This document shows, piece by piece, positions 1 to 59,400 of a stretch of DNA of 64,000 nucleotides (the stretch's first letter is position 1; each line of letters opens with the position of its first letter). The position numbers were made by a program, and so were the translations under genes. Under the pieces are notes generated by a model. The model was not told where the DNA came from. It saw only the letters and a list, made by a program, of their open reading frames with translations, and did not search any database. Source of the DNA: Octopus vulgaris (lineage: Eukaryota); contig OX597827.1 of the NCBI GenBank assembly GCA_951406725.2, positions 84,010,001 to 84,074,000 of the forward strand, given 5' to 3'.

Positions 1-42
1 AGGACTAGAACTGTTTCATTCAAGAGAAATCATCAGGAAGCT
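1..42 (-). ncRNA. Type I hammerhead ribozyme motif, truncated by the window edge
   Basis: The reverse complement reads agcttc-CTGATGA-tttctcttgaat-GAAA-cag-ttctagtc-ct, identical to 3343-3384. Confidence 0.65.
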
Positions 43-392
43 AGTTAACAAGAATTGTATTGGCATTTATACATTTAGGCAGGTTTAAAGGGGTGGTGGT
101 GGGGGACTTTTTGGGGGTAGGCATAGCGCAAAAATATCATACTTGGGGGAGTGGTCAAGGAGTCAGTGGTAAAATAGATAAAAGAATAAATAAAAGAATA
201 AATAAAATAAAAAAATAAAAAAATATATAGAAAAATATATAGAAGAATAGAGTTTTAGGTAAATAAGGAGATTCTCACTTATACATATACACATATGTAT
301 ATATATACACACACACGCACACATATACATACACACATACATACACACACACACACATATATATATACATATATGTATATATACACATATAT

Positions 393-431
<39 letters not shown>

Positions 432-586
432 CATATGCACACATATATACACACACATGTATATATACACACACGCCCACACATACATATACACACAAAA
501 AAATATATACATACACACACATACACATACACACATACACACACATATATCTACATACACACATGCACACACAAGTCCATATATAC

Positions 587-634
<48 letters not shown>

Positions 635-980
635 GTGTACCTATACATACCTACACATACACACATATACATACAAATACAAACCCATTCCCTAATTTTA
701 ATTTTATTATTATCTTCATTTATTACTTTTGTTATCTTTGACCGCGGGTCACAAGCATCTTGGCTACGACAGCAAGTCCATTTATCTTTCTACTCGAACA
801 CAAGCACTCACTCACGCACGCTCACTCATTAGCACGCACACTCACTCATTCGTACACTCATACACATACACGCACGCACGCGTTATATTCATACATACAT
901 ACATCTACATACATTCACATATATACACATACGTACGCGTACCTACAGATTCATGTCTACACGCTTAGAAGACTAGTCCA
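1..980 (-). mobile_element. Non-coding, microsatellite-filled interspersed element carrying a hammerhead ribozyme (copy A; cut by the window start, may extend to ~2900)
   Basis: Unique blocks 1-~200 and ~683-980 align colinearly with 7334-~7530 and ~7859-8150. In both copies they are separated by (TA)/(CA) tracts. No real ORF. Confidence 0.7.
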
Positions 981-1031
981 TACATATACACCAATAAATA
1001 TATACACACATACATATACACCTACATACAA

Positions 1032-1068
<37 letters not shown>

Positions 1069-1202
1069 CGTATATATACATACATATACATACACCCATA
1101 CATACATACATATATACACATACACACACCCACACATATACATATACATACATATACGCGCATACATACACATACATATACATACATATACTCATACACA
1201 TA

Positions 1203-1262
<60 letters not shown>

Positions 1263-1630
1263 CACACATACATACATGTACATACATACATATACATATA
1301 TACACACACATACATACACATATACATACACACACATACACATATACATGCGTACCCATATACACACACACACACGCGCATCCGTATATACACATAAGTA
1401 CACACATGCGTAAAAGTATACATATATCTATACATATGCTTACACATACACACACACGCGTCTCCTTATGTTCATATACTTACATGCATACTCAAAAAAT
1501 AAATAATAAAATATATATACGTGCAGTTATTCATATACATACATGCATACTCAAAAAATAAATAATAAATATTAAGTATATATTTACGTGCAGTTACCTA
1601 TTATACAGACGGATACATGCATATAAACTT

Positions 1631-1677
<47 letters not shown>

Positions 1678-1765
1678 CATACATATACATATACACACAT
1701 ACACACACACACATATATATATATATACTATATACACACACACATACATATACATACACACATAT

Positions 1766-1809
<44 letters not shown>

Positions 1810-1875
1810 GTGTGCATACATACATACATACTCATACACACACACACACTTACACATACATATATACACACACTT

Positions 1876-1920
<45 letters not shown>

Positions 1921-2092
1921 CACACATACACATACACACATATATCTACATATATACATACACATACACACACATACTCACACACACACATATATATACA
2001 TACATACACACACACATACATATATTATATACATATATATATATATACACATGTGTGTATACATACATACATACTCATACACACACACACAT

Positions 2093-2152
<60 letters not shown>

Positions 2153-2366
2153 GTATATACACATAAGTACATACATGCATAAATGTATACATATTTCTAT
2201 AGAGGTGCATACACATACATACGCTCACGCGCCACCTTATATACATAAATACATACATGCATACCAACGCATACTCAAGTAATAAATAATAAGTAATAAG
2301 TAATAAATAATAAGTATATATACATGCAGTTACCCTTTATACAGACGGGAACATTCATATAAACAT

Positions 2367-2430
<64 letters not shown>

Positions 2431-2556
2431 ACACACATATATACACATACACATATATATATATATATATTCATATACATATATACACCTATCTACATAT
2501 ATGCACACATACACACACACATGCATATACGTATAACTCTACATACCTACACATAC

Positions 2557-2641
<85 letters not shown>

Positions 2642-2763
2642 TATATACCCATCTACAATCTGTATATACACACACATACATGCACATACACATAACTCTA
2701 CATACCTACATATACATCGACATACTCGCGTACACTTATATATATATATATATACATATCCAC

Positions 2764-2796
<33 letters not shown>

Positions 2797-2844
2797 AATA
2801 CACACACACATATATACATATATATACACACACACACATACACG

Positions 2845-2902
<58 letters not shown>
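280..2902. repeat. Compound (TA)n/(CA)n/(TACA)n microsatellite field with internal duplications
   Basis: Seen directly. Short unique islands recur, e.g. gcatactcaa..aataaataataa..gcagtta at ~1486, ~1545 and ~2269, and cgtatatacacataagtac at ~1383 and ~2152. Confidence 0.95.
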
Positions 2903-2905
<3 letters not shown>

Positions 2906-3173
2906 AATTGAGGGTAAAGTTAATTAGTTATTAATCAATTTCACCAAGTATTCAGTATGTAAAAGGACCATTATTTTTGAGTAAACATTGTCTGAGAGAA
3001 ATTTTCTTTAAGTAGTGGAAATGGCTAAAAAACTTTTTTGGCTGCTATTTCTAGAAAGTTCAGTATGTGGCAAAGTAATTTATTTTACTAAGCCCTAATT
3101 ATATAATATTTTATATATACATACATATATATACACACATACATATACATATACATATGCATCCACACATATA

Positions 3174-3234
<61 letters not shown>

Positions 3235-3342
3235 TTACATACATACACACGCACACACACATAATACATGCGTATATTCCTACTATACCCATACATTTCT
3301 ATACATATATACATATACATGCCAATACAATTCTTGTTAACT

Positions 3343-3393
3343 AGCTTCCTGATGATTTCTCTTGAATGAAACAGTTCTAGTCCTGTAGAAGCT
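3343..3393 (+). ncRNA. Type I hammerhead ribozyme motif
   Basis: Stem I agcttc/gaagct (6 bp); core CTGATGA at 3349-3355; stem II ttc-tctt-gaa; GAAA at 3368-3371; stem III acag/ctgt; GUA cleavage triplet at 3385-3387. Confidence 0.8.
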
Positions 3394-3429
3394 CCTTCTA
3401 TATAATAAATATATATATATATATATATA

Positions 3430-4886
3430 TAACTTAAATATGTTTCAACCAAAGATTGGTCCAAGCCATATCTAACTTCGTAGCCCCACCTGATAGGATT
3501 ATCTAAATCCTTTTTAAGTCAAGTTTCGTGGTGTCGTGGTCCATTCGAGTAGGGAGTTCTTGTTGAGTGAACTGTATCTAGGTAAAGTTTCCGTTTAAAG
3601 GTGATGGGATCCTTTTCCTCTTTGATTTGTTTCGGGACAATGTTAAATAGGGCAGGGCCGATTGAGGAAAAGAAATTGTGTTACAGTGTATTTATGTGTT
3701 GTAATCTTGAATTGTGTAGGGGACGTATGGCCCGTGGTCCTAACCTTGGATGAATTTTCAAGCTAATGTTGAGGTTGTTTGGGCAATGCTGGTCGTATAT
3801 TCTCCACATCGTGTAAATGATGTATCACTCGCGGTGGCGCCGGAAAGAATAGAGTTTCAATGCTTTAAGGCGGTTCCAATAATCGAAATCAGTCATGCCC
3901 TTAATTCTTTTTGCGAACGATCTCTGGGATGATTCAATTTTCGAGATGTTTTGTTTTGTATGAGGAGACCACAGGGGGCAGCAGCATTCGAGGTATGGCC
4001 GTGCAAAGTAGGAGAAAAGAGGAATGATGACACCTTGTTCTCTGGACCGGAAGGATCTTAGGATCCAGGAGCTCATCTTACGAGCTATATCGACCTTAGT
4101 GTTGATGTGGGCACTCCAGCTAAGATTGTTATCAACAATTACTCCTAGGTCTCTGATATTATTACAGGCTGTGAGTGGTTCCCCTGAAGGAAGAGAGTAT
4201 GGTTGTTTTAGCATAGTCTTTCTTCCAAAATGCATCAGCTCAAATTTTCCCTCGTTTAAGTTGCATTTTGTTTCTGTCTGCCCATTGACTCACAGCATAT
4301 AGATCAGACTGGAGTTCAGTTCGGTCTTCTTCAGCGAATATTTTCACTTTGCTGTGTTTTATGACGCTAGAAAAGTCGTTTATATAGACTATAATGAGGA
4401 GCGGGCCCAAGACAGTCCGCCGAGGGGAACCACTGGTGACTTTTACCGGGCTTCAGTGGATTCCACCGATCACAAGATTTTGTGTTCTGTTCTCCAGGAA
4501 ATACTCAATCCGGTGTTGAAGTTCTCCACGGATTCCAACATTTGACAATTTTGACAGTAGGATATTATGGTCAACATTGTCGAACGCTTTACTGAAGTCA
4601 AGATATATGACATCAGAGCTCGAACTTGATCCCAAGGTTTTAAGGATATCATCGATGTGGTATAAGAGCTGTCCTATTCTTATTTGCAGATGAATGAAAC
4701 GCTTTTTGGTTCAGTTTGATTTTTTTTTATTACCCTGTTCCTCTGCAGCTCTTTGATTTTTCAATGCTGGTTTTCATGTTTTCCAACTCCAGCCTTTTCA
4801 TTGTTGTTGAATGTGGATGTTGCATGTGGGAGTATTTTGATTGATTGATTGATTTTTTTATTAAGTCTTTTGATGCGTCTGATGAG

Positions 4887-4960
<74 letters not shown>

Positions 4961-5563
4961 GGAGCCTGTTTCTGTTTGTGTAAATGGATTTCGTAGGAGC
5001 GTGTTTTGATCATGTATAGGTGACAATGTCCTCAAAGTGCTGCCATGTGGTTTCAGTGTCAGTGGAACTGAGAATGAAGGACCAGTCGATAAAGGACAGA
5101 TCCTTTCTGATTGATCCCCAATCCGCTTTGTGGAAGTTTATGTTGTCAAATAAGTGCAGTGGAGTTGGACTGGATGGTTTTGTTTTGATATGCCGGAAAT
5201 TAAACTTGCAGAGTATCATGTTATAATCCGAGAGGAGAGTTTTTCAACTGAAATACTATGAATGGAACTCGTGGTTTGTTAATATCAGATCTAAGATCGT
5301 TTTATTCTGTCTTGTTGGTTCGACCAGTAGCCGTGTCAGAGAAAAATTCATCCATTAGATTAAAGAGTAATTCTGCTGCTGCTTTGTCAGGTGTAGTGCA
5401 TTTGCCCCACTTCAGACTATATGTGAGCCAGTTTATTTAAGGGAAGTTAAGATTACCCGTCACCAGCATGTTTCCGGAGTTGTATTTCTGAAGGAAGGAG
5501 TTGATTTTGTTGCGGCATTTGTAGTGGATCTTGCAGGCATGGCGTGGATTCGATCCTCGATAG
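3430..5563 (-). mobile_element. Degenerate CR1-group LINE ORF2 (APE C-terminal part plus RT), 5'-truncated and internally deleted
   Basis: Minus-strand fragments LVTGNLNFP*INW (APE), NFHKADW, DVIYLDFSKAFDNVDH, TVLGPL, IFAEED (YADD position), RDLGVIVD and RPYLECCCPLWSPH. Many stops and frameshifts; ends at (TA)n. Confidence 0.85.
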
Positions 5564-6467
5564 CCAAATTTAAATTAACAGTCCAACGGCACTTTTCTCA
5601 CGGTAAAACTATAGTTTTTCTGTGAGTGACGGCAGTTACATTTACCAGATATCTTTGCTGGTCCGGAATAATGTCTTGGCCACTTGACTCTTCTGACCTC
5701 TTCTATTTCTAGAATAGAGATATCACAGACCTTCAACGAAATCTACTGCTCTCAACAATATGTCCATCTTTCTGGCTAATTGTGGATAGTTATAAAAACA
5801 AGAAGACAGGCAGGCGGTGGACCGGCTCCAGCAAAATGCTGTCTTGACTGAGGTAACTTCACAGAGTGACAACTATGGAATTAACCAGCGTAGAATCTGC
5901 TTCGTCCCACATTCTCTTGCTTTCATTAGCTCAATTTCTCTTCTCTGCAACATTATCATATCTCTCGCTAATACTACTATGAAATTGTGTACACCCATAT
6001 ACAGGCCGGAATTAACTTTCTTTACTTTGCATGCTTTACGAACTGTGTCATATACTATTACACTAGCCTAGCCGTCGTGGTATGGCATATATCAAAGAAA
6101 CGGCAAATAAGTATCTCTTTACAACTTCATTCACTGTTCTTCCTTCATCTTACATAATGGCAATCAACTAACAACAAACCATTACAATTTGATGACCCTC
6201 GACTTCAACGAAGAACCAACCGTAACAAACTGGTGACATCTCCGATGTTCCATCCTATTGCTTATCAATTATTGTTTGCCAATTAATTTCTGCCGTTACA
6301 CATTCTTCAAAGCACTTTAGAGATGCTTGGGGAGGCCTGTAGAGAGCAACAATGATTATGTCGCGTTGGCCTTGTTGAATAGGGATTTGGGTTCACAGTA
6401 GCCATAGGAAAATATGTCCTTGGCATCAGCTGAAAAGGAGTCATGGAGAAAGACGGTTGTTCCTCCT

Positions 6468-6514
<47 letters not shown>

Positions 6515-6982
6515 ATGGACTCTCCCGTCATTAGACGACGTATGAGGGTCTGGCAATTTCTTGCCGAACAACCACACAGATGATTTGTTTGTGTACGCAT
6601 AAACTCCCTCCCTCCATCAAATCGACATTACCTGTACAGATGTACTATGTGCCACATGTCAGATGATGAAATTATTGCTTCATAGCTACTAGAATATTAT
6701 CTGAGAGAAATTTTCTTAAAGTAGTAAATGGCTAAAAAAAATTTTTTGGCTGCTATTTCTAGAAAGTTCAGTATGTGGCAAAGTAATTTATTTTACTAAG
6801 CCCTAATTATATAATATAATATTTTGAATTCGCCTTAAATGGTCCTTTTACATACTGAACACTACTTGGTGAAATTGATTAATAACTAATTAATTTTTAC
6901 CCTCAATTGTTGATATTTGTTTTGTTTGTTTTTGTTTTTCCAGTTTCAGCTCTTGAGCTGTGGCCATGCTGGGGCACCGCCA

Positions 6983-7146: not shown

Positions 7147-7238
<92 letters not shown>

Positions 7239-7241
<3 letters not shown>

Positions 7242-8146
7242 GGTCCCGGGTTGATTCGGGGTTAACCACAGTAAGTAAGGTACTCAATACATAGCAGAGT
7301 AAAATTAATTTATTATATAGAAGGAGCTTCTACAGGACTAGTACTGTTTCATTCAAGAGAAATCTTCAGGAAGCTATTTAACAAGAATTGTATTAGCATT
7401 TATACATTTAGGCAGGGGTTTAAAGGAGTGGTGGTGGGGGACTTTTTGGGGGTAGGCATAGCGCAAAAATCATACTTGGGGGAGTGGTCAAGGAGTCAGT
7501 GGTAAGTTAGATGAAAGAATAGATAAATAAAAAAATAAAATAAAAAAATAAAAAAATAAAAAAATAAAAAATATATATTCATACGCACATACACTCATGC
7601 ACACACAACACACCTAGTTCCCTATATACACATATTTACACCTATATATACATACACCCACATACACTTATGCACACATATATATATATATAAACATATA
7701 CACGCATACATATATATACATGTGTGCACATACATACATACACACATATATACATACACATACACATACACATGTGTACCTATACATACCTACACATACA
7801 CACATACATACATACAAATATACGTATACATATATATATATATACAATCCAATACAGGCCCATTCCCTAATTTTAATTTTATTATCTTCATTTATTACTT
7901 TTGTTATCTTTGATCGAGCTAAGAATCCTGGCAATGGCTGCATGTCCATTTGTCTGTCTACTAGAAGGCAAGTACTCATTCCCGCACGCACACTCATTAG
8001 CGCGTACATTCACCCATTCGTACACTCATACACATACACGTACGCACGCGTTATATTCATACATACAAGCATCTACATACGTTCACGTATATACACATAC
8101 GTACTCGTACCTACAGATTCGTGTCTACACTTTAGGAGGCTGGTCT

Positions 8147-8150
<4 letters not shown>
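7239..8150 (-). mobile_element. Non-coding, microsatellite-filled hammerhead-bearing element (copy B)
   Basis: Colinear homology with 1-980; flanked on both sides by (TA)n; hammerhead about 85 nt from its left end. Confidence 0.7.
7325..7375 (-). ncRNA. Type I hammerhead ribozyme motif
   Basis: Minus strand agcttc-CTGAAGA-tttctcttgaat-GAAA-cag-tactagtc-ctg-TA-gaagct. It differs from the 3343 copy only at core position 7 and in loop III. Confidence 0.8.
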
Positions 8151-8202
<52 letters not shown>

Positions 8203-8635: not shown

Positions 8636-9020
8636 CTCCTTCATATATGTGTGTGTGTGTTTCATAGCTGCTAGAATTTAAAACATGTAAACGAGTTATC
8701 CTGATGAGCACGAAATATCATCCGAAACTAGTAGTACGAGTGTCGCACAGTGTTTAATATAACCTTTAAAATTTACATACCTACCCACACACTCACACCT
8801 CTCTCTTTATCTCTATTATGCACTCTCTATACCTCTTTACTCTCTTTACATCTCCACTCTCTGCAAGAGCGCTTACTTCTTTCCATCTTTCCTCTCTAGT
8901 TTCTAATATTTTTTCCTTTCCATTTCCATCTACTTTTCACTCTCCGTTCGTCTGGCTATTGGATGACTTCTCAGAATTTTTCTGTCTTGCACCGTACCAC
9001 ACTTCTAATCTGTCTGTCTT

Positions 9021-11504: not shown

Positions 11505-12120
11505 GAATCGTTAGCACGCTGGGCGAAATGCTTAGCGGTATTTCGTCTGTCTTTATGTTCTGAGTTCAAATTCCGCCGAGGTCGACTTTGTCTTTCATCC
11601 TTTCGGGGGTCGATAAATTAAGTACCAGTTACGCACTGGGGTCGATATAATCGATTTAATCCGTTTATCTGTCCTTGTTTGTCCTCTCTGTGTTTAGCCC
11701 CTTGTAGGTAGTAAAGAAATAGGTATTTCTTTACTACCCACAAGGTCGACTTTGCCTTTCATCCTTTCGGGGTTGATAAATTAAGTACCAGTTGCATACT
11801 GGACTCGATCTAATTGACTGGCCCCTACCTCAAAATTTCAGGTCTTGTGCCTAGAGTAGAAAAGAATATTCGAGTTAGTATTATCAAATTTAATGCTGGA
11901 AATATCAAATATTAGTTTCAAATTTTGTCAACAGACCAGCAGGTTTAGGGAAAGGCTGTCGATTGCATCGATCCCCATTGTTCAACTGGTACTTATTTTA
12001 TCGAAAGAATGAAAGTCAAAGTGGACCCCGACAGAATATGAACTCAGAACGTAAAGACGGACGAAATGCTGCCGAGCATTTTGCCCGGCGTGCTAACGAT
12101 TTTGCCAGCTTGCCGCCGCC
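11505..12120. mobile_element. Cluster of an abundant SINE family: two plus-strand copies and one inverted copy
   Basis: Recurring gttctgagttcaaattccgccgaggtcgactttgcctttcatcctttcgggg..gataaattaagtaccag. Reverse-complement copy at ~11920-12120. Confidence 0.8.
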
Positions 12121-19826: not shown

Positions 19827-22800
19827 GGCTGCCCCCTCGTTATCGAGTATGGCCATTGCACGAAGCTTAACTGTTACTGGTGCTGTGATCGAATGTGACT
19901 TTTTAGCCCAGCTAAAGATCTACAATGTACAGAATTGGCAACTAAAACCTTTACCGGTAATAGTCGGCTGTAGTTGTAACTGGGCTTCATGTATCTTTGC
20001 ATGTCGTTTAAGTCCTTCTGCCAAATTACACTCTCTTCCACATGCCCGACAGATATGATTAGTATGGTGTGTTACACCACCACCAGTGGCCAGGTTGTCA
20101 CTCATCTGTCTCGCTTTATGACTACGAAGATGACTCTTGAGTGCAGCTTTACTGAGGCAGGGTCTTGCACAGACATTGCATGTCAGCATCAAAGAAAGAC
20201 CCTTCCCTTCTGGAAGTGTAACAGCGATGCCCTTCCTGACATCCCTCCTTACTTTCTCATGTGCAACTCGAGATTTCTTCAAATTGGCTGTCCCCTCATG
20301 CACAATCCTTCTCCACCTGCTACGATCAATAGCTATGCCTTCCCATGTGTCAGGAGAGATGCAAGCATCTCTTAAGGAAGCCTTCAGCAAGTCTTTATAC
20401 CTCTTTTTTGGTTTATGTGGAGGTCGTTCTCCTTTAGCTAACTCTCCATAAAAGAGTTGTTTTGGCATCCTTGAATCCTTCATCCTGACCAGATGACCAC
20501 TCCATCTGAGCCTTTGCTTTAACACAAGAGCTTCTATACTTTCACACCGAGAGCCTTCCAATATTTCAAGATCACTGATGCGGTCCTTCCACTTAATGCC
20601 ATAGATCCGTCTGAGGCACATCTGATGGAAACGTTCTAGTTGTTTAAGGTGGTATCGATATGTGACCCACGTCTCGCAGGCATAGAGAAGGGAAGGGAGC
20701 ACACATGCCTTGTACACCTTTATCTTTGTCTTTCTGCATATGTCTCGCCGACTCCAGAGGCGCTTTTCTAGCCTTCCGAAAGCAACACTTGCTTTCCTAA
20801 TTCTATATGGAATTTCATCATCCAAATTGCTATATCTATTAATAGTGCTTCCCAGGTAGACAAACTGATCAACTACATCAAGTCGTTTACCATACACATA
20901 GATATTTGGTACACTATACTGCTTACCAGGGGTAGGTTGATGCATGACAACAGTTTTCTTGAGATTTACTGTCAATCCTAAGGCAGTGCAAGCATCAGAG
21001 AATGCATTCAAAATGTGTTGCATATCAATCTCTGTGTGTGCTACTAGCTCACAATCATCTGCATACAAAAGGTCTCTTATGATAGAGTTAAATACCTTTG
21101 TTTTTGCAGCCAGGCGCCTGATATTAAATATGCTGCCAGAGGTTCGATAATGGACGTAAACACCATATCTGCAGTTTCTGAATGCAATACAGAACATCAT
21201 TGCAAAATATATGGAAAATAGGGTCGGTGCCAGAATATCCCCCTGTTTCACTCCATTTTGTATTGAAATGGGCTCCGACATGTTCTCGCTAACATTCACC
21301 CTACCATTCATGTCTTCATGAAAAGACCTAACCAAAGCAAGGAACTTTTCAGGACACCCAAGTTTCTGGAGGACTTTCCACAATGCTTTTCTATTGACGG
21401 TATCAAAGGCTTTTGTCAGATAGACAAAAACCTGATACAAATCCAGACCCTGTTCCACACACTTCTCCTGAAGCTGTCTAGCTGAAAAGATCCTATCAGC
21501 AGTGCCACGTCCCACATGAAAGCCAGATTGACTTTCTGGAAGAACACAATCTGCAACGTGTTTCAGCAGACGATCCAGAAGTACCCTGCATAAAACCTTT
21601 CCTATGACAGACAGCAATGATACTCCCCTATAATTACCACAATCATTCCTGTTGCCCTTTCCCTTATACAGGACCACCATTACTGTATCTCTCCAGTCCT
21701 CAGGTACAAATTCACTAGTCCATATCTTACTAAACAAAGAGTGAAGTTTCTGCAGAAGTTTCTCACCACCATGCTGTAACAACTCCGCATGTGTGCCATC
21801 CATACCCGGAGACTTCCCATTATTCAACCTTGAGACAGCCATTGCAACGTCTTCCAACTTTGGTGGTTCTGCGAGTGCTGCCTTCACAGGTAATCCAGGA
21901 ATGAGATTGAGAACATCCTCACTAACTACAGACTGCTGATTCAAAAGTTTATCAAAGTGTTCTTGTCACCTTCGCAGAATTTCTTGTGAATCACGAAGAA
22001 GTTCTTTACCAACCCTGCTTCGAATTGGTGTCATCAGGGAAGATGTCGGTCCATAAACTTCTCGCAAGAGACCATACAACAGCTTTGTGTTATTGGAATC
22101 TGATGCTGCCTGTATCTCATCAGCCTTCTTACTCCACCACGTATCCCTCATCTGAGAGAGCTTTTGCCTCACACGTGATTTTTCGTCCTTGAGTTCCCTA
22201 TGCAACACTTCCCTTTCCTGTGGCTTTACTGACAAATAGCGTGACAAAATACGTCTTTTATCAGCCAATAAATCATCTATATGTTCATCATTTTCTTTGA
22301 ACCAATCTTGATACTTTCTTTGTATCAATCCCAGAACTTTCTTGTCTATATCATAAACTGACTTTTTAAGGGTCGGCCAATCCTCCCCAATATCTGCAGC
22401 ATTCATTTCCTCTCGTAAAGTTCTCTTCACACTATTATACCTAAGACGATCAACATTCAGTCTTTTAGGCAGGGTAATCCCTGCAGCTCGGATTTTATGT
22501 TTTGTGACTAATTTTACTTTTGCGCGTACTAAGCGGTGGTCATCCAACACTCAGCTCCACGAAGAACACGAACACACTGCACATCCTGTCTGTCACGCGC
22601 CCTAACTAGGATGTAATGCCATTCTTTAGATGTAGGGTGCATCCATGTAGTCTTAAGCTTATTCTTTTGTTGAAACATGGTATTGGTAACACACAGACGC
22701 AGCTCCTCACACATCTGCAGCAAAAGCATGCCATTACTATTACACTTCCCCACCCCATGCTTTCCAATTACAGTCCAGGTGTTAAAATCCCTACCCACTC

Positions 22801-23190
22801 TAGCATTAAAGTCACCCAGTACGATGACTCTGTCTGCCGAGGGATATTTCTTATAATGTCCTTCAAAGCATGGTAGAAAGAAAGTTTTTCGTCATCAGTA
22901 TAGCACATAGTTGGAGCATACACACTCACCAAGGTCATATAATTTCCTTTAGACAAAGAAATTCTCATGGACATAAGACGCTCATTAATTCCGATTGGGA
23001 ATTCTTCCAACTTGTCCACAAGAGTAGTCTTAACAGCAAATGCCACTCCAGCTTCTCCTCTAGACTTTTCATTCCTCCCTTTCCAAAAGAATGTATATTT
23101 TCCACAAGATTCTTTAAGATGACCATCTCCAGGTAATCTCGTCTCAGATAGAGCAACGATGTCAAGATCATAGCGTTGAAGCTCCTTCGC
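19825..23190 (-). mobile_element. Near full-length RTE-clade LINE (APE, RT and three C-terminal C2H2 fingers), frameshifted
   Basis: APE: ELQRYDLDIVALSETR, SVYAPT, KTTWMHP, DHRLV. RT ORF 19920-21944: KSPGMDG, NYRGVSLLS, KAFDTV, GVKQGDILAPTLF, LLYADD, RLRWSGH. The 3' stem-loop ctcg-ataa-cgag precedes (TA)n. Confidence 0.95.
19920..21944 (-). pseudogene. RTE reverse transcriptase ORF segment (674 aa open)
   Basis: Present in the ORF track with the RT motifs listed above. It is disconnected from the upstream APE by frameshifts. Confidence 0.9.
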
Positions 23191-23439
23191 ATATATATAT
23201 ATACCTACGCACATCCTCATACGTGCATGCATGTACACACTCATACACACACATATACTCACACGTACACACACACATATACTCACACGTACACACACAC
23301 ATACATCTTCACATGCGTACATACGTATCGATCTATGTACACTCATACGGTTATCTATAACTACATATATGTACCTCAGTATCATGCCTCTCAACATGTA
23401 TGTATGGATTTCTACATGTAAATGGGAGAAAGCAGTGGT

Positions 23440-24582
23440 TATAGATGGGTACTCCCGAGTGGAGTCTGGGTGTTACCCCATTCGGATTTACAGTTGAGAG
23501 TGAGTCTGTATTCTTGTATACAGACAGCTTTGCATCAGTGGGATGTGTAGATAAGATGTCTAACCTAAGTCTCCCTAAGGAGCTATTGTGACAGTCTGCA
23601 GAATGCTAATAGAAGATGGAGTTTTTTTTATCAATGTAGTTGTCCAGGTGTTCTTTGAACCTATCATTGATGCTGCTAGAGGTCTCACCAATATGATGAC
23701 TCTGGGATAATCGCGCAAGCCCCTTCTAAGGCACTTAATCTGGTATACAGTGGTTTTCTTTTTACAGTTCATATGTGGGTTTGTAGAACATACTGCACAA
23801 TTATTCTGACACGTGATTCTATCAAATGGGTATGATTTACTTAATACAGATTTGATAAATCCTAGCTGTCGTTTCTACAATTTTGATCTTAAGGCCAGTT
23901 GTGCACAGGATTTTCTTGAATGCCTTACTTAATTTGTTCCTGGGTGTAGCGTCAATAAACATTACACTGTGAAATTTCTTGTTACCATAGTAAGTATTAT
24001 TCTTATTTCTTTTGTTGGTGTCCCTCTCCAACCAATTCCAGAACTTGTTGCGGTATAGAGGGCATATACCATTTTCGTCATCTCTTAGAATGCGTTCGAA
24101 TCTCGTTTCCGCTCCTTTATACACTCTGATTCTATCGTACTGTGTGTATCCGGAACGATGCATTCGGAATGTGTAGTGCTGGATGTGTTGTTGTTGTTCT
24201 TGTGGTTGGCATAGTGGGGATACGTTCCTCATTACTCTGCCACGAGGATGTTGATTTTGGTAGTCCTCGACATTGCTGGGTGGGAAAAGCATATACAAGA
24301 TTATTGCATGACAGATATTCGCCGGTACAAGTCGGGGTCAGGAAGAGGCCTAGTTCATATACATCCACGTTTTTAAATATCATATTACTCTCACAAATTA
24401 ACTCGATAGCAATGGAAGTATATAGTGATACCACATCCATGCTATCTACGATGTGGTCACTGATGTCGCATGTGTTGTTGCATTCGCGGATCCTGTTAAG
24501 GAGGTCGTCAGTACTATCAGATACATCTGTAGATAATTCTATCATAGGTCGTAGGAATTGTGAGAGATATGATAGTTTGTGG
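23440..24582 (-). mobile_element. Penelope-like element remnant (RT fragment, Cys-rich linker, C-terminal GIY-YIG)
   Basis: STDDLLNRI...SMDVVSLYTSI (RT); SVMFIDATP..L; PFDRITCQNNCAVC...NCKKKTTVYQIKC; HIGETSSSINDRFKEH; LNCKSEWG, read across frameshifts. Confidence 0.8.
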
Positions 24583-24981
24583 CTGTTCCTGGCGATGGAC
24601 CTGATTGACTTGAAGCGATCTTTGCCAATCATGACCTGGATCTCACTAACAAATTCAGGAGTTCTTTTCTTATCAGAACGATCAGAGTGAGTTTTCCGAG
24701 CTGCCGTACCTTTGCCATCACCATTAGACTCATCCAACTCTTTACGAATCCTCCTCACCGTCCTCAGATTGACACCCAAACACTCTGAAATGTTCGTATT
24801 GCAGCGAATGCTAAGCAGAACTGCTCGTCGTTTCCAAATTTCTGACAGAGTGAATTGTGCCATGGTTTTCTCACAAACGGTGCCCTACTATACTCTGTAG
24901 TCGACAAAATCAAAACCAAACCATGCGCATGCGCGAAATTAAAAATATAAAATGGCGACAATCCACCCATCGCACAATGTA
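24583..24981 (-). mobile_element. maT/Tc1-like transposon 5' fragment, same family as 9340-10128
   Basis: MAQFTLSEIWKRRAV...GVNLRTVRRIRKEL...KSIRSIAR; shares ttttgtcgact with 9340; degenerate left TIR tacattgtgcg...ttgtcgcc. Confidence 0.8.
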
Positions 24982-25049: not shown

Positions 25050-25745
25050 CATCATTATAAAAGACTGTAATCATCAGAGGAGAAGTAATTTTTCAACATA
25101 AAAGAATCTCCAAGAACACAGCCGGCCAATGTTGCTCACTTATCGACACATCCTGCCCGTTTGGTTCCAGGGTCGTAAAGAAAGAAGAAGAAGAAATAGA
25201 ACACCTTAAAATTTGAAATAGGAAGAATTTGGAGCATGGGAACATTAAAGGTCGTTCCTACAAAAATTGGTGCGTTGGGAACCGTAAACACAGATATATA
25301 TTTCTTTACTACCCACAAGGGGCTAAACATAGAGGTACAAACAAGGACAGACAAAGGGATTAAGTCGATTACACCGACCCAGTGCGAAACTGGTACTTTA
25401 TTTATCGACCCCGAGAGGATAAAGGCAAAGTCGACCTCGGCGGAATTTGAACTCAGAACGTGACGACATACGAAATACCGCTAAGCATTTCGCCCGGCGC
25501 GCCGCCTCACCGTAAACACAGATTTAGACAAATGTTTGAAGGAGATTGGAATAGAATGTCCGGTAGAGCGCCTATAAGAAGTTTGTCTCTTGGGGACAGC
25601 AAGGATTGTCAGGAGGGTTCTAAGCATTTGAAAGGGAGCTGAAAACTTGTGGATTCCTAAGGTTACAGTTAGTAACCCGCGACCCACATATATCTCCTAC
25701 GATGAATAAGACCCAACCTGAGACAAACCAAAATAATAAGAATAA
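25050..25745 (+). mobile_element. R4/Dong-like (restriction-like endonuclease) LINE 3' remnant, interrupted by a SINE
   Basis: LKFEIGRIWSMGTLKVVPTKIGALGTV matches the C-terminal motif seen at 59930-60020. Ends in aataataagaataat. Confidence 0.55.
25296..25508 (-). mobile_element. SINE insertion with a 15-bp target-site duplication
   Basis: accgtaaacacagat at 25281-25295 and 25509-25523 flanks a reverse copy of the 11505 SINE family. Confidence 0.85.
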
Positions 25746-25964
25746 TACTGGCTTCAATTTTGGCACAAGGCCAGCCATTTTGGGGGAGGGGATGTATCGA
25801 TTACATCGACTCCAATACTCAGCTACTACTTATTTAATCGACCCCGAAAGGATGAAAGGCAAAGTCGACGCCGGCGGAATTTGAACTCAGAACGTAGCAG
25901 CAAACGAAATACCACCAAGCGTTTCGTCTTGCATGTTAATGATGCTGCCAACTCGTCGCTTTTG

Positions 25965-26005
<41 letters not shown>

Positions 26006-26230
26006 CCTTCCTACTATGGGCACAAGGCCTGAAATTTGGGGAGGGGGATAGTCAATTACATCGACTCCAGTACACAACTGGTACTTAATTCATCGACCCT
26101 TAAAGGATGAAAGGCAAAGTCGACCTCGGCGGAATTTGAACTCAGAACGTAACGGCTGACGAAATCCTGCTAAGCATTTCGTGCTGCATGTTAATGAGTC
26201 TGCCAGCTCGCCACCTTTGATAATAATACT
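25746..26230 (-). mobile_element. Two tandem SINE copies separated by (AAT)n
   Basis: aaaggatgaaaggcaaagtcgac..cggcggaatttgaactcagaacgta occurs twice. Confidence 0.85.
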
Positions 26231-27449
26231 AATTACGCGGAAGATGTTCAGGATAACTTCAACCGCATCTCACTGCATCACCCAAGATGAGAGCTTGTTA
26301 TTTATTTTTCAGTTTTCTTTTTATTGTTGAATGTTATTAAATTTTGTTAACATTATCCCAACCGTGAAACAATATCATTATGTGTGATTAAAAATAGTTG
26401 CAAGCTGTTATTTGGGTTAGGATTAGGGGAACAACAAGGAGTCACCGGATGAAACCTATTTTTCCCTTATATACTTTTTCGCATTTATCAGCGATTTATT
26501 TAACACGTTGTTTTTAGAATCAAATTCCCGTGATAAACGAGGTTAAATGTATTTCAATCTCATGATTTTCAAATATCATCACACACACACACATTAAATT
26601 TCGTACTCTGCACATTATTCTTTTGCGTCTGTGTCCTGATAATTCATAAGTTGCAATAACGTGTGTGTATTTACATCCCTATCCTAGCAACAGTCGCTAA
26701 GTACTCACAGTGGAAACAACAGCACCAGCAGTAGTAGTAGTTGTAGTAGCAACGATGGTAGTGGTGCTGGTTGTAGCAGCAGTGGCAGCGGCGACAGGTG
26801 GTGGTTGCAGTATTAGTAACGTGTATCGTTTCTTATCGATCATTTTACTCTGCTGTCCACCATTGATCTTTGTTTCCCTGCCTGACGGCCAAGTTGTCGT
26901 CAGTTACTTTTCTTTAAAGTATCATTTATAGAATAAAATTGACCAACCGGATTTAGGTGAATGTTTCAAATAACAATATAACGTTTCTAATTGCCTGGCA
27001 GGTAGAAGGTACTTGAAAGATATTTAGAGCTCTGTGAAATGCCCTGTTTTGCCCCAGATGGCTTTCTCCATTTTAGGACTTACATTTTCATATTTTTTTA
27101 TATTTCTCTATTTCATATTTTTCAATACATGCCCCCACCACTTCGATTGTTGATTTCCATTCGTTCTGACCTCTTCCTCACTAGATTCCCCCCTGTCTTT
27201 GTAATGTCATCTACTCGTCGTCCTTCTTTCAAAAACATTAATGTTATTTTTCCGTCCTTCTATTGTTATTTCGTTCTTCCACGGCACAGCCGAGCGTAGG
27301 TGTGTGTGTCTTGTTTTGCCTGCTGCATATTCTGTTTTGTTAAAAGTATTTTATTTGATATATGTGCAATGCTTGTTGATAATATCGACATAAGAGCAAC
27401 CAGACAGTGAATGAGGCTAACGTAACTAAAGACTAACATCTTCACTATT

Positions 27450-31836: not shown

Positions 31837-32523
31837 CGTAGGCAGCCACAAGGTCTAAAGACCTGAAGCTGACTGTGGTGTTGTGCTTGACTGCCCTAGC
31901 CAGACATCAAAAGCTTACACACGCTGGAGCTGTTCAATCTAATGCCCCTCCGTATTCGCAAGATTCTTTGTAATTTTTACTTTTTTTGTAACAATGACTT
32001 ATTCACCACAAACGCCCCCCAGCCCGATTCATCTTAGATGCTTTGTGTTTTTATCCTTTCATTTTCTTCTTAACCAATTCTTTCTCACTGTAACAAATAG
32101 ATCTGAACTGCTAGAATCTCTCATCACCAACAATATTGCTTGAAGCGAAATCGAAATGTAAATTTCTGAACTTGTGAAGCATCGCATGTCACCTGAGGAG
32201 GCTCTTTTGCACTGTGCGGTGCATCTGGTGTTATTGCATCGTTCCACGCCTGCTAGGGAGCAGTGCAGTATGAAGCCGAAATGACTGTCGGACTAATAAA
32301 TGCTTCTTTTAAAATATACCCTACGTGCACCTCGAAATTTCGGACATAGATCCGACGACGGACGCACGGTATCGCTGATGACGCCTGATAGCCATAAGTG
32401 GTGAACGTGCTCTGCAGACACACTACCTGGAGCTTACCCTGAAACAAGGTTTGAATACTGCATTTAGCACCTACTTTCTAAGCCTTAATTCTTTAACTTT
32501 AAATTCGACTTTATATATATATA

Positions 32524-35500
32524 TGTTATGTGTTATTTCGTTCTAATGGGATAGACAACTCAATACGAAGCATAGTTATTATTTTACGTGTTTATTTACT
32601 TTTCCATGTTACACGAACTGCGCTACTTTCAGCGCAGCGACACCTATATATCATTAGACACAGCGTAGTAATACTGTTTACTTTAAAACACAGTTCGTAC
32701 TGTTCACTAACAAATTCTGCTGGGGATTTCATATCAGCTCTCAGTGGTGTCGCTCGTAGGGACAGAAGTGCCAGGTGTGGGTCTTCCTTAGTCTCTCGGC
32801 ATTTGACTAGTGTTCTCTTCACTGTCTGCACCTGTCTTTCTATAAACCCATGACCTTTGGGGTAGTGTGGAGATGAGGTTGTAATATTGAACCCATACTC
32901 ATCGGCTAGCTTTTTGAATTCTTGTGATGTGAACTGGGTTCTGTTGTCACATATGATCTGCTCTGGTATTCCTTGCTCTGCTAAAAGTCCTCGAGCCACT
33001 GTAGTGATTGTTTTGGCTCTCAGGTCTTTCACTTTTCTCACAAATGGAAATTTGGAGTAGTAGCAGACCATAATCAAATACCATTCTTGGCCCTCTGTGA
33101 ACAGATCTACTCCAATAGTTTGCCACGGCCTTCTTAGGATGTCACTAGATATCATTTCCTCCTTTTGTTGTGAGTTTCTGTACTTCTGACAGATGTGGCA
33201 TGTAGAAACTGTCTTCTCTATGTCTTTGTACATGCCTACCCAATATACTGCTGACTTGACTCGGAGCTTGCATTTCTCCATTCCGAGATGCCCTTGGTGG
33301 ATCTTGTCAAGAATCTCTTTTTGCATTGACTTGGGTATAATTATTCGGGATCCAGCCATCAGGATTCCATTCTCCACTGATATATCATCATGGATGGCCC
33401 AATATTCACGAATTAGGGGCTGCACCTGATGTCTCTTTTCTGGCCACCCCTGAATCACCATCTGAGTAAGGAGCTGGAGTTCATCATCTTTGCTGGTCTC
33501 CTCTTTGATTTCTGCTAGTTTTGTGGTTGTTACATTCACAATGTGGTGGACCTTTGTGCTTAGTCCTTCCATCTCCTGTTTGTCATGTGATGATAGTCTG
33601 GAAAGAGCATCCGCCAATATCAGGTCTTTTCCTGGCTTGAACCTGATATCGTAGTCGTATGTTTGAAGCCTTAACAGTAATCTTTGCAGTCTGGCTGGTG
33701 CTTTCATGAGGTTTTTTTCTATGTATTTGTTCTAGCGGGCGATGGTTTGTTTCAATGTTGAAATTTCTGCCATACAGGTATGTTTGGAACTTTTCACATC
33801 CATATACTACTACCAGGAGTTCCCTTTCAATATTTGCGTACCTTGTCTTTGTGGGTGAGAGAGCTTTCGAGGCATATGCAATGGGTTTACCTTCCTGTAT
33901 CAGTGCTGCGCCAACTCCTCTCATAGATGCATCGACTTGGAGTATTATTGGTTTGCGTCTGTCATAGTATTGCAGAGTTGTCTCCTTACTGATGAGCTTT
34001 TTGATTGCTTTGAAATCCTGTGTGTGTGAAGCACACCAATCAAACTCTACGTCATCTCTGTTTAGTTCCCGGAGATTTGCAGTGAGATCGGCCAGCTTGG
34101 GTATGAAGGCTCCCATGTAGTGGATGAGTCCTAGGAAACTCCTGAGTTCCTTCTTGTCTTTGGGTTCTTTAATGTCTCAGATGGCTTCCAGTTTAGCGGG
34201 GTCTGGTTTAACTCCCTCTGCCGAGTATATAATTCCAAAGAATTTGCACTCCTTTGCTTTTACCACACACTTGTTTGCATTGAGTTTGATGCCTGCTTGT
34301 CGGGTTTTCTCCATAGCTTCATGTAAATTCAAGTCATGTGTGGTCTCATCCTTGCCATGCACTTGGATGTCATCTGCTATTCCTATTGCTCCCTTGCAGC
34401 CTTGGTAGGTCTCATCTATTTGGCGCTGGAAAACATCTTGGCTCACCTTCAATCCAAATGGGAGTCGGTTGAATCGATATCTGCCAAATGGTGTGTTGAA
34501 GGTAGTGAGCATGGATGACTCTTCGTCTATCTTTATATTCCAGTACCCATTACTGGCATCCAGTTTGCTGAATAATTTGGACCCAGCCAATGATGGTGTG
34601 ATTTCTTCAAGGGTTGGAATTGGATGGTACTCTCTTTTTAAAGCCTTGTTCAGGTCCCTTGGGTCGAGGCATATCCGTAGGGTACCATTGGGTTTTTCCT
34701 TGATTACGATTGAATTTACCCAGTCTGTTGGTCGTGTCACTTTGGTGATTATTTCTTTTTTTTTTCCATTTTGTCCAACTCTGTCTTCAGCTTCTCTTTT
34801 AGTTCTAGAGGGACGCGGCGAGGTGGGTGAACAATTGGTTTGATATTGGGGTCGACTGTTATATGATATCGACATTTCACAAAGCACCCGACTGTATCGT
34901 CAAAGCATTCAGGGTACATGCTTATCAGTTCCTCTTTGTTTGTGATTGGTGGTCGGTCTTTGATAGGCATATCTCTGTCAATCCTGCTCGGAGTTGCCTT
35001 CACTTCACCATTGATTGACACAATATTTAGCTTTTTGCAGGTATTGAGTCCAAGAATTGCTGGTCCTTCTGTTCTTGTGACATAAAAAATAACACTTGAT
35101 TATTTTTCCTTTGTGCGTCCCTGTAATTGTTGTTTTACCCAGTTGTGGAATCCTGGTACCTCCGTACGCAGTGAGGATTACATCACTTGGTGTGAGGATT
35201 CCTTCTTTGATTTTATCCTCTTGTGTCATGTGTTCTGGGAACATCTTGTAAAGGTTGACAGGCAAGATATCACTCTCGGCTCCAATGTCAATCTTCAGCC
35301 TTAAGTCAATGTTTATTCTTTTCTTGCCAGCCTTCTTTTGAATTCTTATTGTTGTGTAGGCCTCATTTTTTTTCTGGTCGTCCGTTCCCATCTCATGCAC
35401 ATTTATTGTGCCGACTGCCAAGAATTCCTCTTCTGAGGTGTTTTGTTCCTGTTGTTGTGCATGTATATCTCTTTTTCTATTTCCGCTCCTCTTTGAAAAT

Positions 35501-36636
35501 TGGGGCTTGTATTTCTGGGATTTTGTCAACCTACACATTTTTTTCCAGTGGTTAAGTTTTCCACATGCTTTGCAGTGTGTACCGAATGCAGGACATTTCT
35601 TCCGGTTATTGAATTCATGCTCTGTACCACAGTACTGGCATGTTCTTTGTTTGCGGGTATGTTTCGTCCTGTGCCTAGATACAATATCTACACTGCTGCC
35701 TAGTGAGCTTGTTTGTAAGGTAAGTGAGGTCATTTGTTTGGTAGTGGCTTCGAATGCTCTTGCAGTGTCTACTGCTTCTATCAACTGGAGAGCGTCCTTA
35801 CCTATGAGGGATTTCTGAACTTCTTTATGAGCACACCCCCATATTAATTGGTCAACAATTCTTTCGTCCTTATCTTTGAATTTGCATTTTTCGGCAACAT
35901 TCTTTAGTCTGGACAGGAAATTGTCAATCGTTTCTTGTGGGTCTTGTTTCAGGCCCTGGAATTTGTATCTGTGAATTCTATGGTTCGACCTGGGCTCTAG
36001 GTGCCTTTCAAATTTCTCTAAAAGTGTGTCTGGGTTATTGCAATCCGATTCTGACATGTCCCAGCTGTTGAATAGGTCTAGACCTTTTTCGGCCGTCCAT
36101 AAAAGGATATAGCTTACCTTTTCTTCTTCGGTTGTGCCTTTTAGGAAACTTTTGAAAACTAGTTGAGTTTTCTGTTTGAATTTCTTAAACGCTTCCACGA
36201 TATCACCGGAGTCCCAATTCATGGTTGGATGTAGATTCATCTGTACGGCGACGGGGGTCGCCATTTTGGATTCTCGTGTATGTGTGTCCGAAGACGAAGC
36301 GATGTTTTGTTTGTTAATTTCTGGTTCGTTGTGTTTCTGTTTTGTTGTAAAGGCACAGTTTCCAATTAATTATCCCACCGCTACCACCATGTTATGTGTT
36401 ATTTCGTTCTAATGGGATAGACAACTCAATACGAAGCATAGTTATTCTTTTACATGTTTATTTAATTTTCCATGTTACACGAACTGCGCTACTTTCAGCG
36501 CAGCGACACCTATATATCGTTAGACACAGCGTAGTAATACTATTTACTTTAAAACACAGTCCGTACTGTTCACTAACAAATAGTGCCAAAAGTGGGGATG
36601 TATTCTACACACGTATACACATAGATATGAATGTGT

Positions 36637-36924: not shown

Positions 36925-38899
36925 AAAAATATCAGAGAATTCCCAAACATCAAAAGGGGTAGATACAAAAGAGGTTGTAAGATTAACTGCATTGAAGAAA
37001 GTTCGATTCATGGAGATCCGATGAAAGGTTTTAAACCTATAGAATTTATGCATGTCTACATATAGCTCATATTGAATATTTGATCAAGTTGTATGAAGAA
37101 ATTTTCGGATACAGTCATGCAAAATTTCTGAAAATCCGAGTAAGAGGCAAAGTGACTGCCACATCATGTAGAGGAAAGTCTGAGTAAAAACATAGTAACT
37201 GTCATATCGTGTAGAGGAACAGATTGTTATTGAAATTTACAAGAATCGCAGATAAGTTCGATTTTTTTGGAGATCCGATGAAAAAGTCTTGAACTTACAA
37301 TATTTGTGTATGCCCTTATAGTTCCTATTGTGTTTCATTTCACCCATATGTTGTGTTGATTCTTCACACCACGAGATTTACTTCACCCGCGTGTTTGGTT
37401 AAAAAAAAAAATTATATTTATCAATTAGAATTTTATTATAGATATTTTTCGTCAATCGTCTTAATATTCTACATAATTTTCATATATAGCAAAAGCTGTT
37501 TGCGATGTTTATACAGGTTCTTGGCATTAGGAAGGCGAATGGAATATGTGAACTCAGTACACAACCGCACACCTACACTTCAAGCACAATATTGACAAAG
37601 CATCGGTGACTCAACGACTCAGTATTGCCAAGCTTCAGGGACTTATTGACTCAGATAGCTGGATTTATGATTTCACTAGATTAATTCTATTCATAAACAT
37701 TTAAATTGGGAGTATTTCTTAAACCGTTAGCTTCACATTTCGACACCTTAACTAAAATTTAGTCCACGTAACAGGAACCAAGAGGGATATCGTGGAACAG
37801 AGAAACTGTGGATGATACAGATAATTTGACATTATTTTTGAATTCTGCATGCAAAAACATAAGAGAAAGGTATTCTTCTTGGGACAAATTCTTTGTTGAC
37901 CAGTGTTATTCTTATCGTAGTTTACAAATCCAAGCATGAAAACGTTACTCAACTTTGGAGTTTTGGAGACAGACGCCCCCTTTTCACACACACACACTCT
38001 TATATATTAATGATGTACGCAAATACACGACAGGTATACATAATACTGAAATACGTATAAAGTAAACACGCAAATATAGCAAATTCAAAAATAATTTTTA
38101 AAACATACAATCAATGAAGAGACAAAAGAAACAGTAAGGTGATCCATGTTGATTTTATTAGGTATTTCTGTTTATTTAGAAACCTACAGTGAACAGGGGA
38201 TTCCACATACGCTAAACTATAAATTTCACAGGGTACAACCTTACAGTTGACACTGCTCCGCTAAACGCAGAAAATTTCTATCTCGCTAATGGCTAAAAAT
38301 ACACAGTTTTTTTCGATTTCTAAACCTCTGTAACTTTTTCCTCCAGTTTTTTTCTCCGCAACATCATACCTCCATAGCAATAAGATTGGAAAACTATAGT
38401 ATTATAGCAGATTTTCAGATTTTTTTACTGTCTTTTTAAAAATGCATATTTTGCGAATGAACGAAAAAACTAGATCCTGCATGCCCCGCATCTAATTACC
38501 CATCTCGGCCATGTTCTTCATGTCAGAAATCATACGGGGTAAATAGTGCCGCAGCATGATATAATGATCAAAGAACTCAAACTTATTTATACTTATAAAT
38601 TGAGGATATAATCAGTTAGCATGATTTGATCAGTGGCTAGCATATAAGAAACGACCATATCGGTAAAATTAATTTTCAAGTACATAATTATAAAAAGTAT
38701 AATTATAATTGAGGGCACGGGAGTGCCAGCGCTTATACGCTAGAAGTAAATGTAAAATACCTACAATCCACTCTAATTTATTCTCTATTTATAACCCACA
38801 TGTTAATTGGGTTATAAATTTCTTGCCTATAGAGAAAGATCCAGTTTCTGACCTAGATCCAAGGCTCCTTTATTGGAATTTCAACATCAACAACAGAGA

Positions 38900-38959
<60 letters not shown>

Positions 38960-38961
<2 letters not shown>

Positions 38962-58449: not shown

Positions 58450-58572
58450 TACATTTTTCAACTATAGGTACAATTTTGAGAAAGGGGCCCAGTCAATGAC
58501 GTCAACACCAGTGTTTCACTGGTACTAAGTTTATCAACACTGAAAGGATGAAAGGCAAAGTTGACCTTGGCA

Positions 58573-58603
<31 letters not shown>

Positions 58604-59400
58604 CCTTTGTACTATAAGCACAAGGCCTGAAATTTGGCAGGAGGGGTCCAATTGATTAGATCAAACCCCAGCACTCAACTGATACTTAATTTATTGACGC
58701 TGAAAGGATGAAAGGCAAACTCAGAGGAATTGAAACTCAGAACGTAATGGCAGACAAAATACCTATTTCTTTACTACCCACAAGGGGCTAAACACAGAGA
58801 GGACAAACAAGGACAGACAAACGGATTAAGTCGATTACATCGACCCCAGTGCGTAACTGGTACTTATTTAATCGACCCCGAAAGGATGAAAGGCAAAGTC
58901 GACCTCGGCGGAATTTGATCTCAGAATGTAGCGGTAGACAAATACCACTAAGCATTTCGCCCGGTGTGCAAATGATTCTGGCAGGTCACTGCCTTAATAA
59001 TGATAATAATAATAATAATAATGGATTCAAGTTTTGGCACAAGGCCAGCAATTTTGGGGGTGGGGATAAGTTGATTACATTAACCCCAGTCCTCAACTGG
59101 TACTTATTTTATCAACCCGAAAGGATGAAAAGCAAGTCAACTTCAGTGAAATTTGAACTCAGAATATAAAGCCAGAATAAATGCCACTAAGCATTTTGCC
59201 TGGCATGCTAATGATTCTGTCAGCTCACTGCCTTAATAATAATAATAATAATAATAATGATAATCCTTTCTACTATAGGCACAAGACCTGAAATTCTGGG
59301 AAGTGGACTAGTCAATTACATTGACCCCAGTGTATAACTGGTACTTAATTTATCAACCCCAAAAGGATGAAAGATAAAGTTGACCTTGGTTTTAATAATA
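58450..59400 (-). mobile_element. Head-to-tail array of about 5 SINE copies or fragments separated by (AAT)n
   Basis: The aaaggatgaaag...aaagt motif occurs at ~58545, ~58703, ~58881, ~59120 and ~59362. Confidence 0.85.

Follow-up and report, generated by a model that had tools for sequence, protein, structure and literature searches.

Results

A hammerhead motif carried by two insertions

The window, by which we mean the whole 64,000-nt stretch of Octopus vulgaris DNA analysed here, carries a type I hammerhead motif on its plus strand (Table 1), as an earlier note made from the letters alone had described. That note counted three copies, all of which are present; the one at the window edge is cut short there and is complete in the adjoining genome stretch. 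It and the copy at 3343-3393 are, however, two arms of a single insertion spanning window positions 1-3410, in which a 5′-truncated long arm on the minus strand is followed by a 92-nt inverted arm, so that the three copies record only two events. The remaining copy (7325-7375, minus strand) differs within the motif only at N7 and at one base of loop III, as the note had it; these substitutions do lie at N7 and in loop III, but they are subfamily markers of a very young family. Hammerhead numbering with C3 at 3349 likewise places the predicted scissile bond where it had been put before. The short arm of insertion 1 begins about 24 nt above the putative transcription start discussed below and is therefore derived from a longer RNA.

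A generic type I scan of both window strands returned two whole copies and one weak, chance-like match. In the genome assembly (2.8 Gb, 227 contigs), a pattern of core plus stem III matched 7,681 times, against 33 for the reversed control, and the motif is not a chance match. No hammerhead family appeared among the 150 listed of 168 Rfam matches to the window; those listed are simple-repeat miRNA models only. The folding energy of the motif is no better than that of shuffled sequences (z 0.17 and -0.17) and is uninformative. A second plus-strand stretch at 8690-8765 has CUGAUGA and GAAA boxes without a closing stem I; a DNA search with its 8700-8760 portion matched only itself, and the stretch is perhaps a hammerhead that has decayed or is wired differently.

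Table 1. Positions of the hammerhead motif, its copies and the associated element features in the window
Feature	Positions	Strand	Details and basis
Type I hammerhead motif	3343..3393	+	Stem I 6 bp, core CUGAUGA, U10.1-U11.1, GAAA, GUA triplet
Stems II and III of the motif	3343..3393	+	II: 3 bp, 4-nt loop; III: 3 bp plus A15.1-U16.1, self-complementary 8-nt loop
Putative transcription start, first base of stem I	3343..3343	+	From other genomic copies (5′-end pile-up, extra G)
Predicted scissile bond	3387..3388	+	Hammerhead numbering; terminus of a rare class of copies
Predicted competing hairpin over cleavage site and 3′ strand of stem I	3384..3402	+	ViennaRNA
Short inverted arm, insertion 1	3319..3410	+	Starts ~24 nt above the putative start; ends at the upstream RT start site
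(TA)n target repeat	3411..3431	.	Sequence; family ends abut (TA)n
Long arm, insertion 1	1..3318	-	5′-truncated; microsatellite-rich 3′ UTR and pLTR; tail ends ~95 nt before the window start
Hammerhead copy 1, truncated at the window edge	1..42	-	Motif scan, adjoining stretch
TATA box, 29 nt above the putative start of copy 1	65..71	-	Sequence; subfamily variation table
Insertion 2, 5′-truncated long arm of another subfamily	7235..8199	-	Hammerhead 7325-7375, TATA box 7398-7404

The parent element and its assignment to the Hydra clade

The earlier reading of the motif as a hammerhead in a Penelope pLTR context was borne out by recovery of a parent element and by the hammerheads found beside homologous ORFs. 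At one locus (L087) a complete unit of ~4.78 kb lies between two pLTRs and runs from a leader through a 713-aa ORF (RT plus GIY-YIG) and a microsatellite-rich 3′ UTR to a pLTR, with a partial tandem copy ahead of it; the RT and GIY-YIG ORF was also found in loci around copies of the motif. A second copy of the 140-nt leader sits at the 3′ end of the element, and the ORF starts ~140 nt below the predicted cut. A Pfam search of the ORF gave nothing above the cut-off, and the protein motifs were read from the ORF itself: DKT, RWR (a site at which 24 of 30 aligned rows have K), a CxCx5C linker, and CxxC and CxH around E and N, with CCHH absent. Two listed homologues carry PF01541, which we take to be GIY-YIG.

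A single ORF with RT and C-terminal GIY-YIG is the arrangement of EN+ Penelope-like elements (PLEs), and a partial-tandem pLTR, an inverted 5′ copy and a tail at one end are the Penelope-like layout. The protein motifs, insertion at (TA)n and a hammerhead near the 3′ end are those of the Hydra clade, to which we assign the element by motifs and layout. It does not fit the Naiad clade (N-terminal GIY-YIG, no canonical hammerhead), its endonuclease being C-terminal and its hammerhead canonical in order, nor the non-LTR retrozymes, which are direct tandem non-coding hammerhead repeats, the octopus copies being inverted pairs or lying 1-7 kb apart. No relatives were found in the viral contigs searched. 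A downstream anchor matched 8,313 times in the genome assembly, against 5 for its control (~8,000 pLTR copies), and both flanking anchors are exact in 1,951 copies; the family is very young.

The Hydra clade as described in the available text of Craig et al. (2021, PMC8557442) has the same protein motifs, the same (TA)n target and a sense type I hammerhead ~100 nt from the 3′ end. The octopus unit differs in its size and microsatellite-rich 3′ UTR (~4.8 kb, against generally <3 kb in the clade) and in its 8-nt loop III, compared with 1-3 nt in the rows of File S2, and the Hydra-1_oBim hammerhead given there is a different sequence from that in the window.

Several further repeats were noted along the way. 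Many ORF copies in the genome listing match from near query residue 92 and have two TAG stops in common, a pattern suggestive of a defective sublineage spread in trans. A ~200-nt block of the element 3′ UTR (2903-3099) recurs alone, partly inverted, at 6693-6929, and may be the stub of another (TA)n-targeting element captured by the Hydra-clade element. Decayed reading frames at 23837-24690 presumably resemble another Penelope-type RT. Element fragments lie at 3440-6700, 19920-23472, 32523-36586 and 38852-40120, including an LTR element with 198-nt direct repeats; we take their classes to be a LINE (minus strand), two RTE-like LINEs and the LTR element. A short interspersed repeat that starts after (AAT)n is present in several copies (12004-12117, 25376-26233, 58491-59423 and 61397-61551; families D11-D15).

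Constraint on the fold

We aligned 127 copies from the first contig of the assembly (C1, 0.4-30.4 Mb), a non-random sample made up mostly of the first 100 downstream-anchor matches together with loci from anchor and core-pattern searches, and scored as subfamily variants those common to at least three loci. Such variants occupy 5 of the 13 free positions (N7 and the loops) compared with 2 of the 38 core and stem positions (Fisher p=0.008), and the two stem I positions that do vary are rarely changed (3/120 and 4/111) and sit in an error-prone spot. Of the 22 spacer positions above the motif, 13 have subfamily variants, as do 5 of the 86 tail positions and 0 of the 7 positions of the TATA box. 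The whole transcribed 140-nt leader is thus conserved, and the conservation is not specific to the ribozyme. The comparison of core with flanking mutation rates that the earlier note had offered as a refutation is valid for subfamily-level changes only, because dead copies mutate freely after insertion; at that level changes avoid the core and stems, although core mutations do occur among the 100 copies listed.

The hammerhead core is present in full (C3 U4 G5 A6 N7 G8 A9, G12 A13 A14, A15.1-U16.1 and H17), as is a three-stem layout (6, 3 and 3 bp) with open ends in stem I, which is supported by pair variation. The usual G10.1-C11.1 pair is absent, with U-U in 108/108 and 117/117 copies covering the two sites. 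This had been read as a non-canonical variant or a sign of weakness; the pair is indeed not the usual one, but it is no oddity, being a clade-wide published variant and, reportedly, the mispair with the highest activity. Many Hydra hammerhead rows in File S2 of PMC8557442 have U at both positions, and the U10.1-U11.1 hammerheads of Perreault et al. (2011, PMC3088659) share the mismatch, described as the best-tolerated mispair, in an account whose available parts describe no retroelement mechanism. Among 31 non-redundant motifs, that of the window included, the 10.1-11.1 pair is U-U in 15, G-C in 9, A-U in 3, G-U in 3 and C-A in 1. Small PLE hammerheads are reportedly treated in Lunse et al. 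2017, which may already cover the activity of the U-U variant.

Alignment of copies had also been proposed as a source of covariation. The 127-copy alignment of the family contains no compensatory stem change, whereas stem pairs do vary as pairs among the 31 non-redundant homologous motifs. Homologues with ~40% protein identity have a sense hammerhead beside the ORF in 50 of 77 loci, and hammerhead matches outside homologue ORFs number 63 in sense and 3 in antisense. The search required the core and stems to be present, so that the evidence here resides in strand, position and pair variety, with the antisense count as the real control. Self-complementarity of stem III among homologues is 0.88, compared with 0.53 for shuffled sequences.

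Copy ends define a class of short head-to-head stubs

The 3′ ends of the copies abut (TA)n and cluster at two sites, 306 (64 copies) and 233-237 (55 copies, including one at 232) in the coordinates of copy L050. Some 88 of the 127 sampled copies form 44 tight head-to-head pairs, which we refer to as stubs. These are ~200 bp long, combine one long and one short arm in 44 of 44 cases, and are the commonest form of the element, numbering ~2,900 by extrapolation. Their abundance is what might be expected if the palindromes were a self-propagating non-autonomous element, a MITE or a retrozyme, rather than repeated dead-end products. We regard this as extremely unlikely: the junctions vary between copies, with an overlap or gap of -10 to +19, stubs were found in every subfamily sampled and are without a TATA box, and they are not tandem arrays.

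The 5′ ends of the 127 copies pile up at stem I. Measured from C3, 68 lie at -7 to 0 and 90 at -7 to +28, with 8 at -60 to -8, 27 in longer copies and 2 far downstream; none is within 3 nt of the scissile bond. Contigs of three public sequencing runs have loose ends at the same stem I boundary; contigs from runs guessed to be of RNA cover the pLTR and ORF and are uninformative on starts or expression.

Manual merging of 98 matches gave 77 loci at which copies join (TA)n directly at the first base of stem I. Just before stem I, a position with T or C in the template, 45 of these loci have G, 13 T, 12 C and 7 A, and the extra G is found in 0/20 and 0/11 cases at two control positions (p about 1e-9). 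Twenty extra-G loci were retrieved, comprising 21 copies of which 10 are long arms and 11 short. The partial tandem at L244 has a second unit that also starts with an extra G at stem I. Two other readings were considered. The extra G is not the first base of the opposite long arm, being found in long arms too and absent from the controls. An intron ending at stem I, as in Drosophila virilis, was entertained because an AG lies directly before the octopus stem, and was tentatively set aside since the copies begin at the A of this dinucleotide plus an added G. Untemplated G in L1 and SVA marks a capped 5′ end and has been read, in the relevant part of the published account, as a copied cap (PMC4859970).

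The element RNA probably starts, with a cap, at the first base of the ribozyme

Three features, namely the pile-up of 5′ ends, the extra G and a TATAAAT box 29 nt upstream of the first base of stem I, indicate that the RNA likely begins at the ribozyme's first base and is capped there. The generality of this arrangement is weak, since only 6 of the 27 homologues examined have a TATA box about as far upstream. Searches of the openly available literature turned up no PLE hammerhead to which a start site had been mapped. The promoter of D. virilis Penelope (PMC2377424) also lies in the pLTR but is internal, TATA-less and accompanied by an intron, and that of the Adineta Pen2a pLTR (PMC3846280) has a putative TATA box and initiator, with an inverted pLTR and a tail; the available parts of neither paper tie the start site to a ribozyme.

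Could the motif instead be a catalytically dead relic, conserved through the youth of the family, with the pile-up at stem I produced by palindrome microhomology or a stall of RT? The family is nearly uniform, many junctions use a 4-nt palindrome within stem I, and folding prediction gives weak stems. We nevertheless consider this very unlikely, because copies that join (TA)n directly, and so have no second arm, show both the pile-up and the extra G, and because changes avoid the core and stems and leave the TATA box untouched beside a divergent spacer.

Most templates appear to have been uncut

In ViennaRNA predictions, stem I forms with a probability of 0.99 when the RNA is 51 nt long but of only 0.12-0.29 when it has reached 68 nt, by which length a hairpin with a pairing probability of 0.71-0.88 covers the site; weak stems and this competing hairpin are thus predicted to keep the ribozyme mostly off. 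The dimer potential raised in the earlier note held up in the same type of calculation, a two-RNA duplex through stem III being strongly favoured at -12.8 to -15.2 kcal/mol compared with -1.4 for the hairpin.

The ends of the copies point to templates that were, in most cases, likely uncut. A search for head-to-head junctions near the cut site gave 81, against 13 for the control. Among the first 50, 44 were typed as long plus short, and in 11 both arms lie within -2 to +1 of the scissile bond; one of these, L298, proved to be a false call from mutated arms, leaving 10 that are mostly filler-joined. Junctions lacking microhomology supply 36 arm ends, of which 14, including two from L298, fall at 0 or +1, 11 at -1 or -2, 7 at +2 to +6 and 4 further upstream, with the caveat that a uniform null for these positions is crude and that AT-rich filler blurs -1 and -2. 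Ends joined to (TA)n at the scissile bond are not significantly enriched (20, against 11 at a control position; p=0.15). Taken as they stand, the scissile-bond ends hint at rare cleavage in vivo, affecting ~1% of stubs or less, but stalling of RT where stem III begins could produce them as well. In 14 of 125 stub arms a deletion is present at one position close to the cut site. We considered these deletions as scars of RT crossing a nick and rejected that reading in favour of a probable assembly error, since neither the 100 long copies listed nor the public-run variant tables, at 2%, contain them.

Discussion

The motif is probably the pLTR hammerhead of a young Hydra-clade PLE whose RNA is likely capped at the ribozyme's first base and mostly copied uncut, with slow self-cleavage predicted and probably aided by dimerisation or protein. 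Absent from the earlier note were the parent element, the common origin of two of its copies and the evidence for copying of mostly uncut RNA. In the scheme that we favour, the TATA box would direct Pol II to initiate at the first base of stem I, and RT would start at two internal sites, ~23 and ~96 nt past the scissile bond. We propose these internal starts because of the two clusters of 3′ ends and by analogy with the Anolis Poseidon element PAc (Frangieh et al., 2024; PMC11167929), where likewise two internal RT starts define the tail, the template is uncut and the target is AT-rich. Priming would take place from both strands of the nicked (TA)n target. With RNAs that begin at the start site, both cDNAs would reach the cap, after ~68 and ~141 nt, and join head to head to give the ~200-bp stubs. 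The analogy has limits, as PAc belongs to a different clade and its RT starts lie inside the ORF, compared with the leader here. Unprocessed RNA is its main substrate and cleavage requires protein; the available text mentions neither RNA reads that end at its cut site nor a start site located at its ribozyme.

A different emphasis would be that the fold is kept mainly for RNA pairing or protein binding, stem III joining two RNAs for two-sided priming with catalysis incidental. Both arms of every stub (44/44) copy the same segment, which requires two templates or two passes, and in 4 of 43 informative stubs (L100, L116, L119 and L153) the arms differ at a subfamily marker, such that two different RNAs may have entered one insertion. 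The predicted preference for the dimer duplex and the self-complementarity of stem III kept across the clade are also in keeping with a pairing device. The discordant pairs rest, however, on 1-2 bases each and might be mutations or assembly errors, and pairing alone would not require the catalytic core that is kept beside ORFs only ~40% identical. On balance we judge this explanation unlikely.

What the proposed capped, mostly uncut RNA gains from cutting at all is the least certain part of the mechanism. Whole copies have their upstream 3′ UTR restored and the putative promoter lies outside the transcript, and therefore a circle, a cDNA jump or a read-through RNA is needed. The ribozyme, when it cuts, might trim a two-pLTR transcript to unit length for circle closure, and longer-than-unit cDNA made from the circle would then rebuild the promoter. 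As between a circle and template switching, we slightly favour the circle, at about even odds. Alternatively, the main role of cleavage might be self-limiting: a cut at +1 would remove the cap with a 45-nt fragment and destroy or silence the mRNA, and an LTR-like transfer of cDNA to the downstream pLTR, rather than a circle, would restore the promoter. The coincidence of the putative start with stem I, an ORF that begins below the cut and the leader repeated at the 3′ end would all suit such an arrangement, as would the finding that catalytic mutants of PAc still insert in vitro (PMC11167929). We think it rather unlikely nonetheless, since cleavage looks rare and the brake would be a weak one.

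Returning to the favoured scheme, a more specific form of it makes the hammerhead a switch at +1 of a capped, TATA-driven RNA: most molecules remain uncut and end as dead stubs, whereas an RNA dimer primes both strands and occasionally cuts, with the cap-G ends and the filler-joined scissile-bond ends as fossils of the two states. We put this forward tentatively, and lean somewhat against it.

Much of what is described here has precedents. The ribozyme, the U-U variant and the type of element are already known. Earlier-described PLE hammerheads have the same pLTR location, a palindromic stem III, a dimer model, low activity and a circle model (Cervera and de la Pena propose a circle); those descriptions, which come without in vivo evidence, put weight on a conserved G10.1-C11.1 pair and on a bulge that follows A9, in contrast to the U-U found here. 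The animal non-LTR retrozymes (Li et al., 2026; 10.64898/2026.07.22.740005) share a type I hammerhead derived from PLE pLTRs but, in the available text, are direct tandem arrays, whereas the octopus copies are inverted stubs or truncated elements. The octopus family is not among the Hydra families in the lists available from PMC8557442, whose accessible text describes neither a start site nor a stub class for the clade, and the main text of the octopus repeat annotation, as far as it is available (PMC13282606), is without mention of ribozymes or Hydra. What is new is what the copy ends show, namely the probable start site, the extra G and the structure of the stubs.

The function of PLE hammerheads has been called unclear (Craig et al., 2021; PMC8557442). 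In the octopus genome, the copies amount to thousands of naturally made reaction products, which locate with single-base precision the start site, the two RT start sites and perhaps also the site of cutting. The stubs argue for two sense templates, over the antisense self-priming favoured in the available part of PMC3846280, as the source of head-to-head insertions, and they indicate that apparent MITEs in such genomes can be dead-end products of PLEs. If the reading of the hammerhead as a switch at +1 is true, the copies would document for the first time that a PLE hammerhead of an animal cuts in vivo, and the circle would account for the restoration of a promoter that lies outside the element's transcript.
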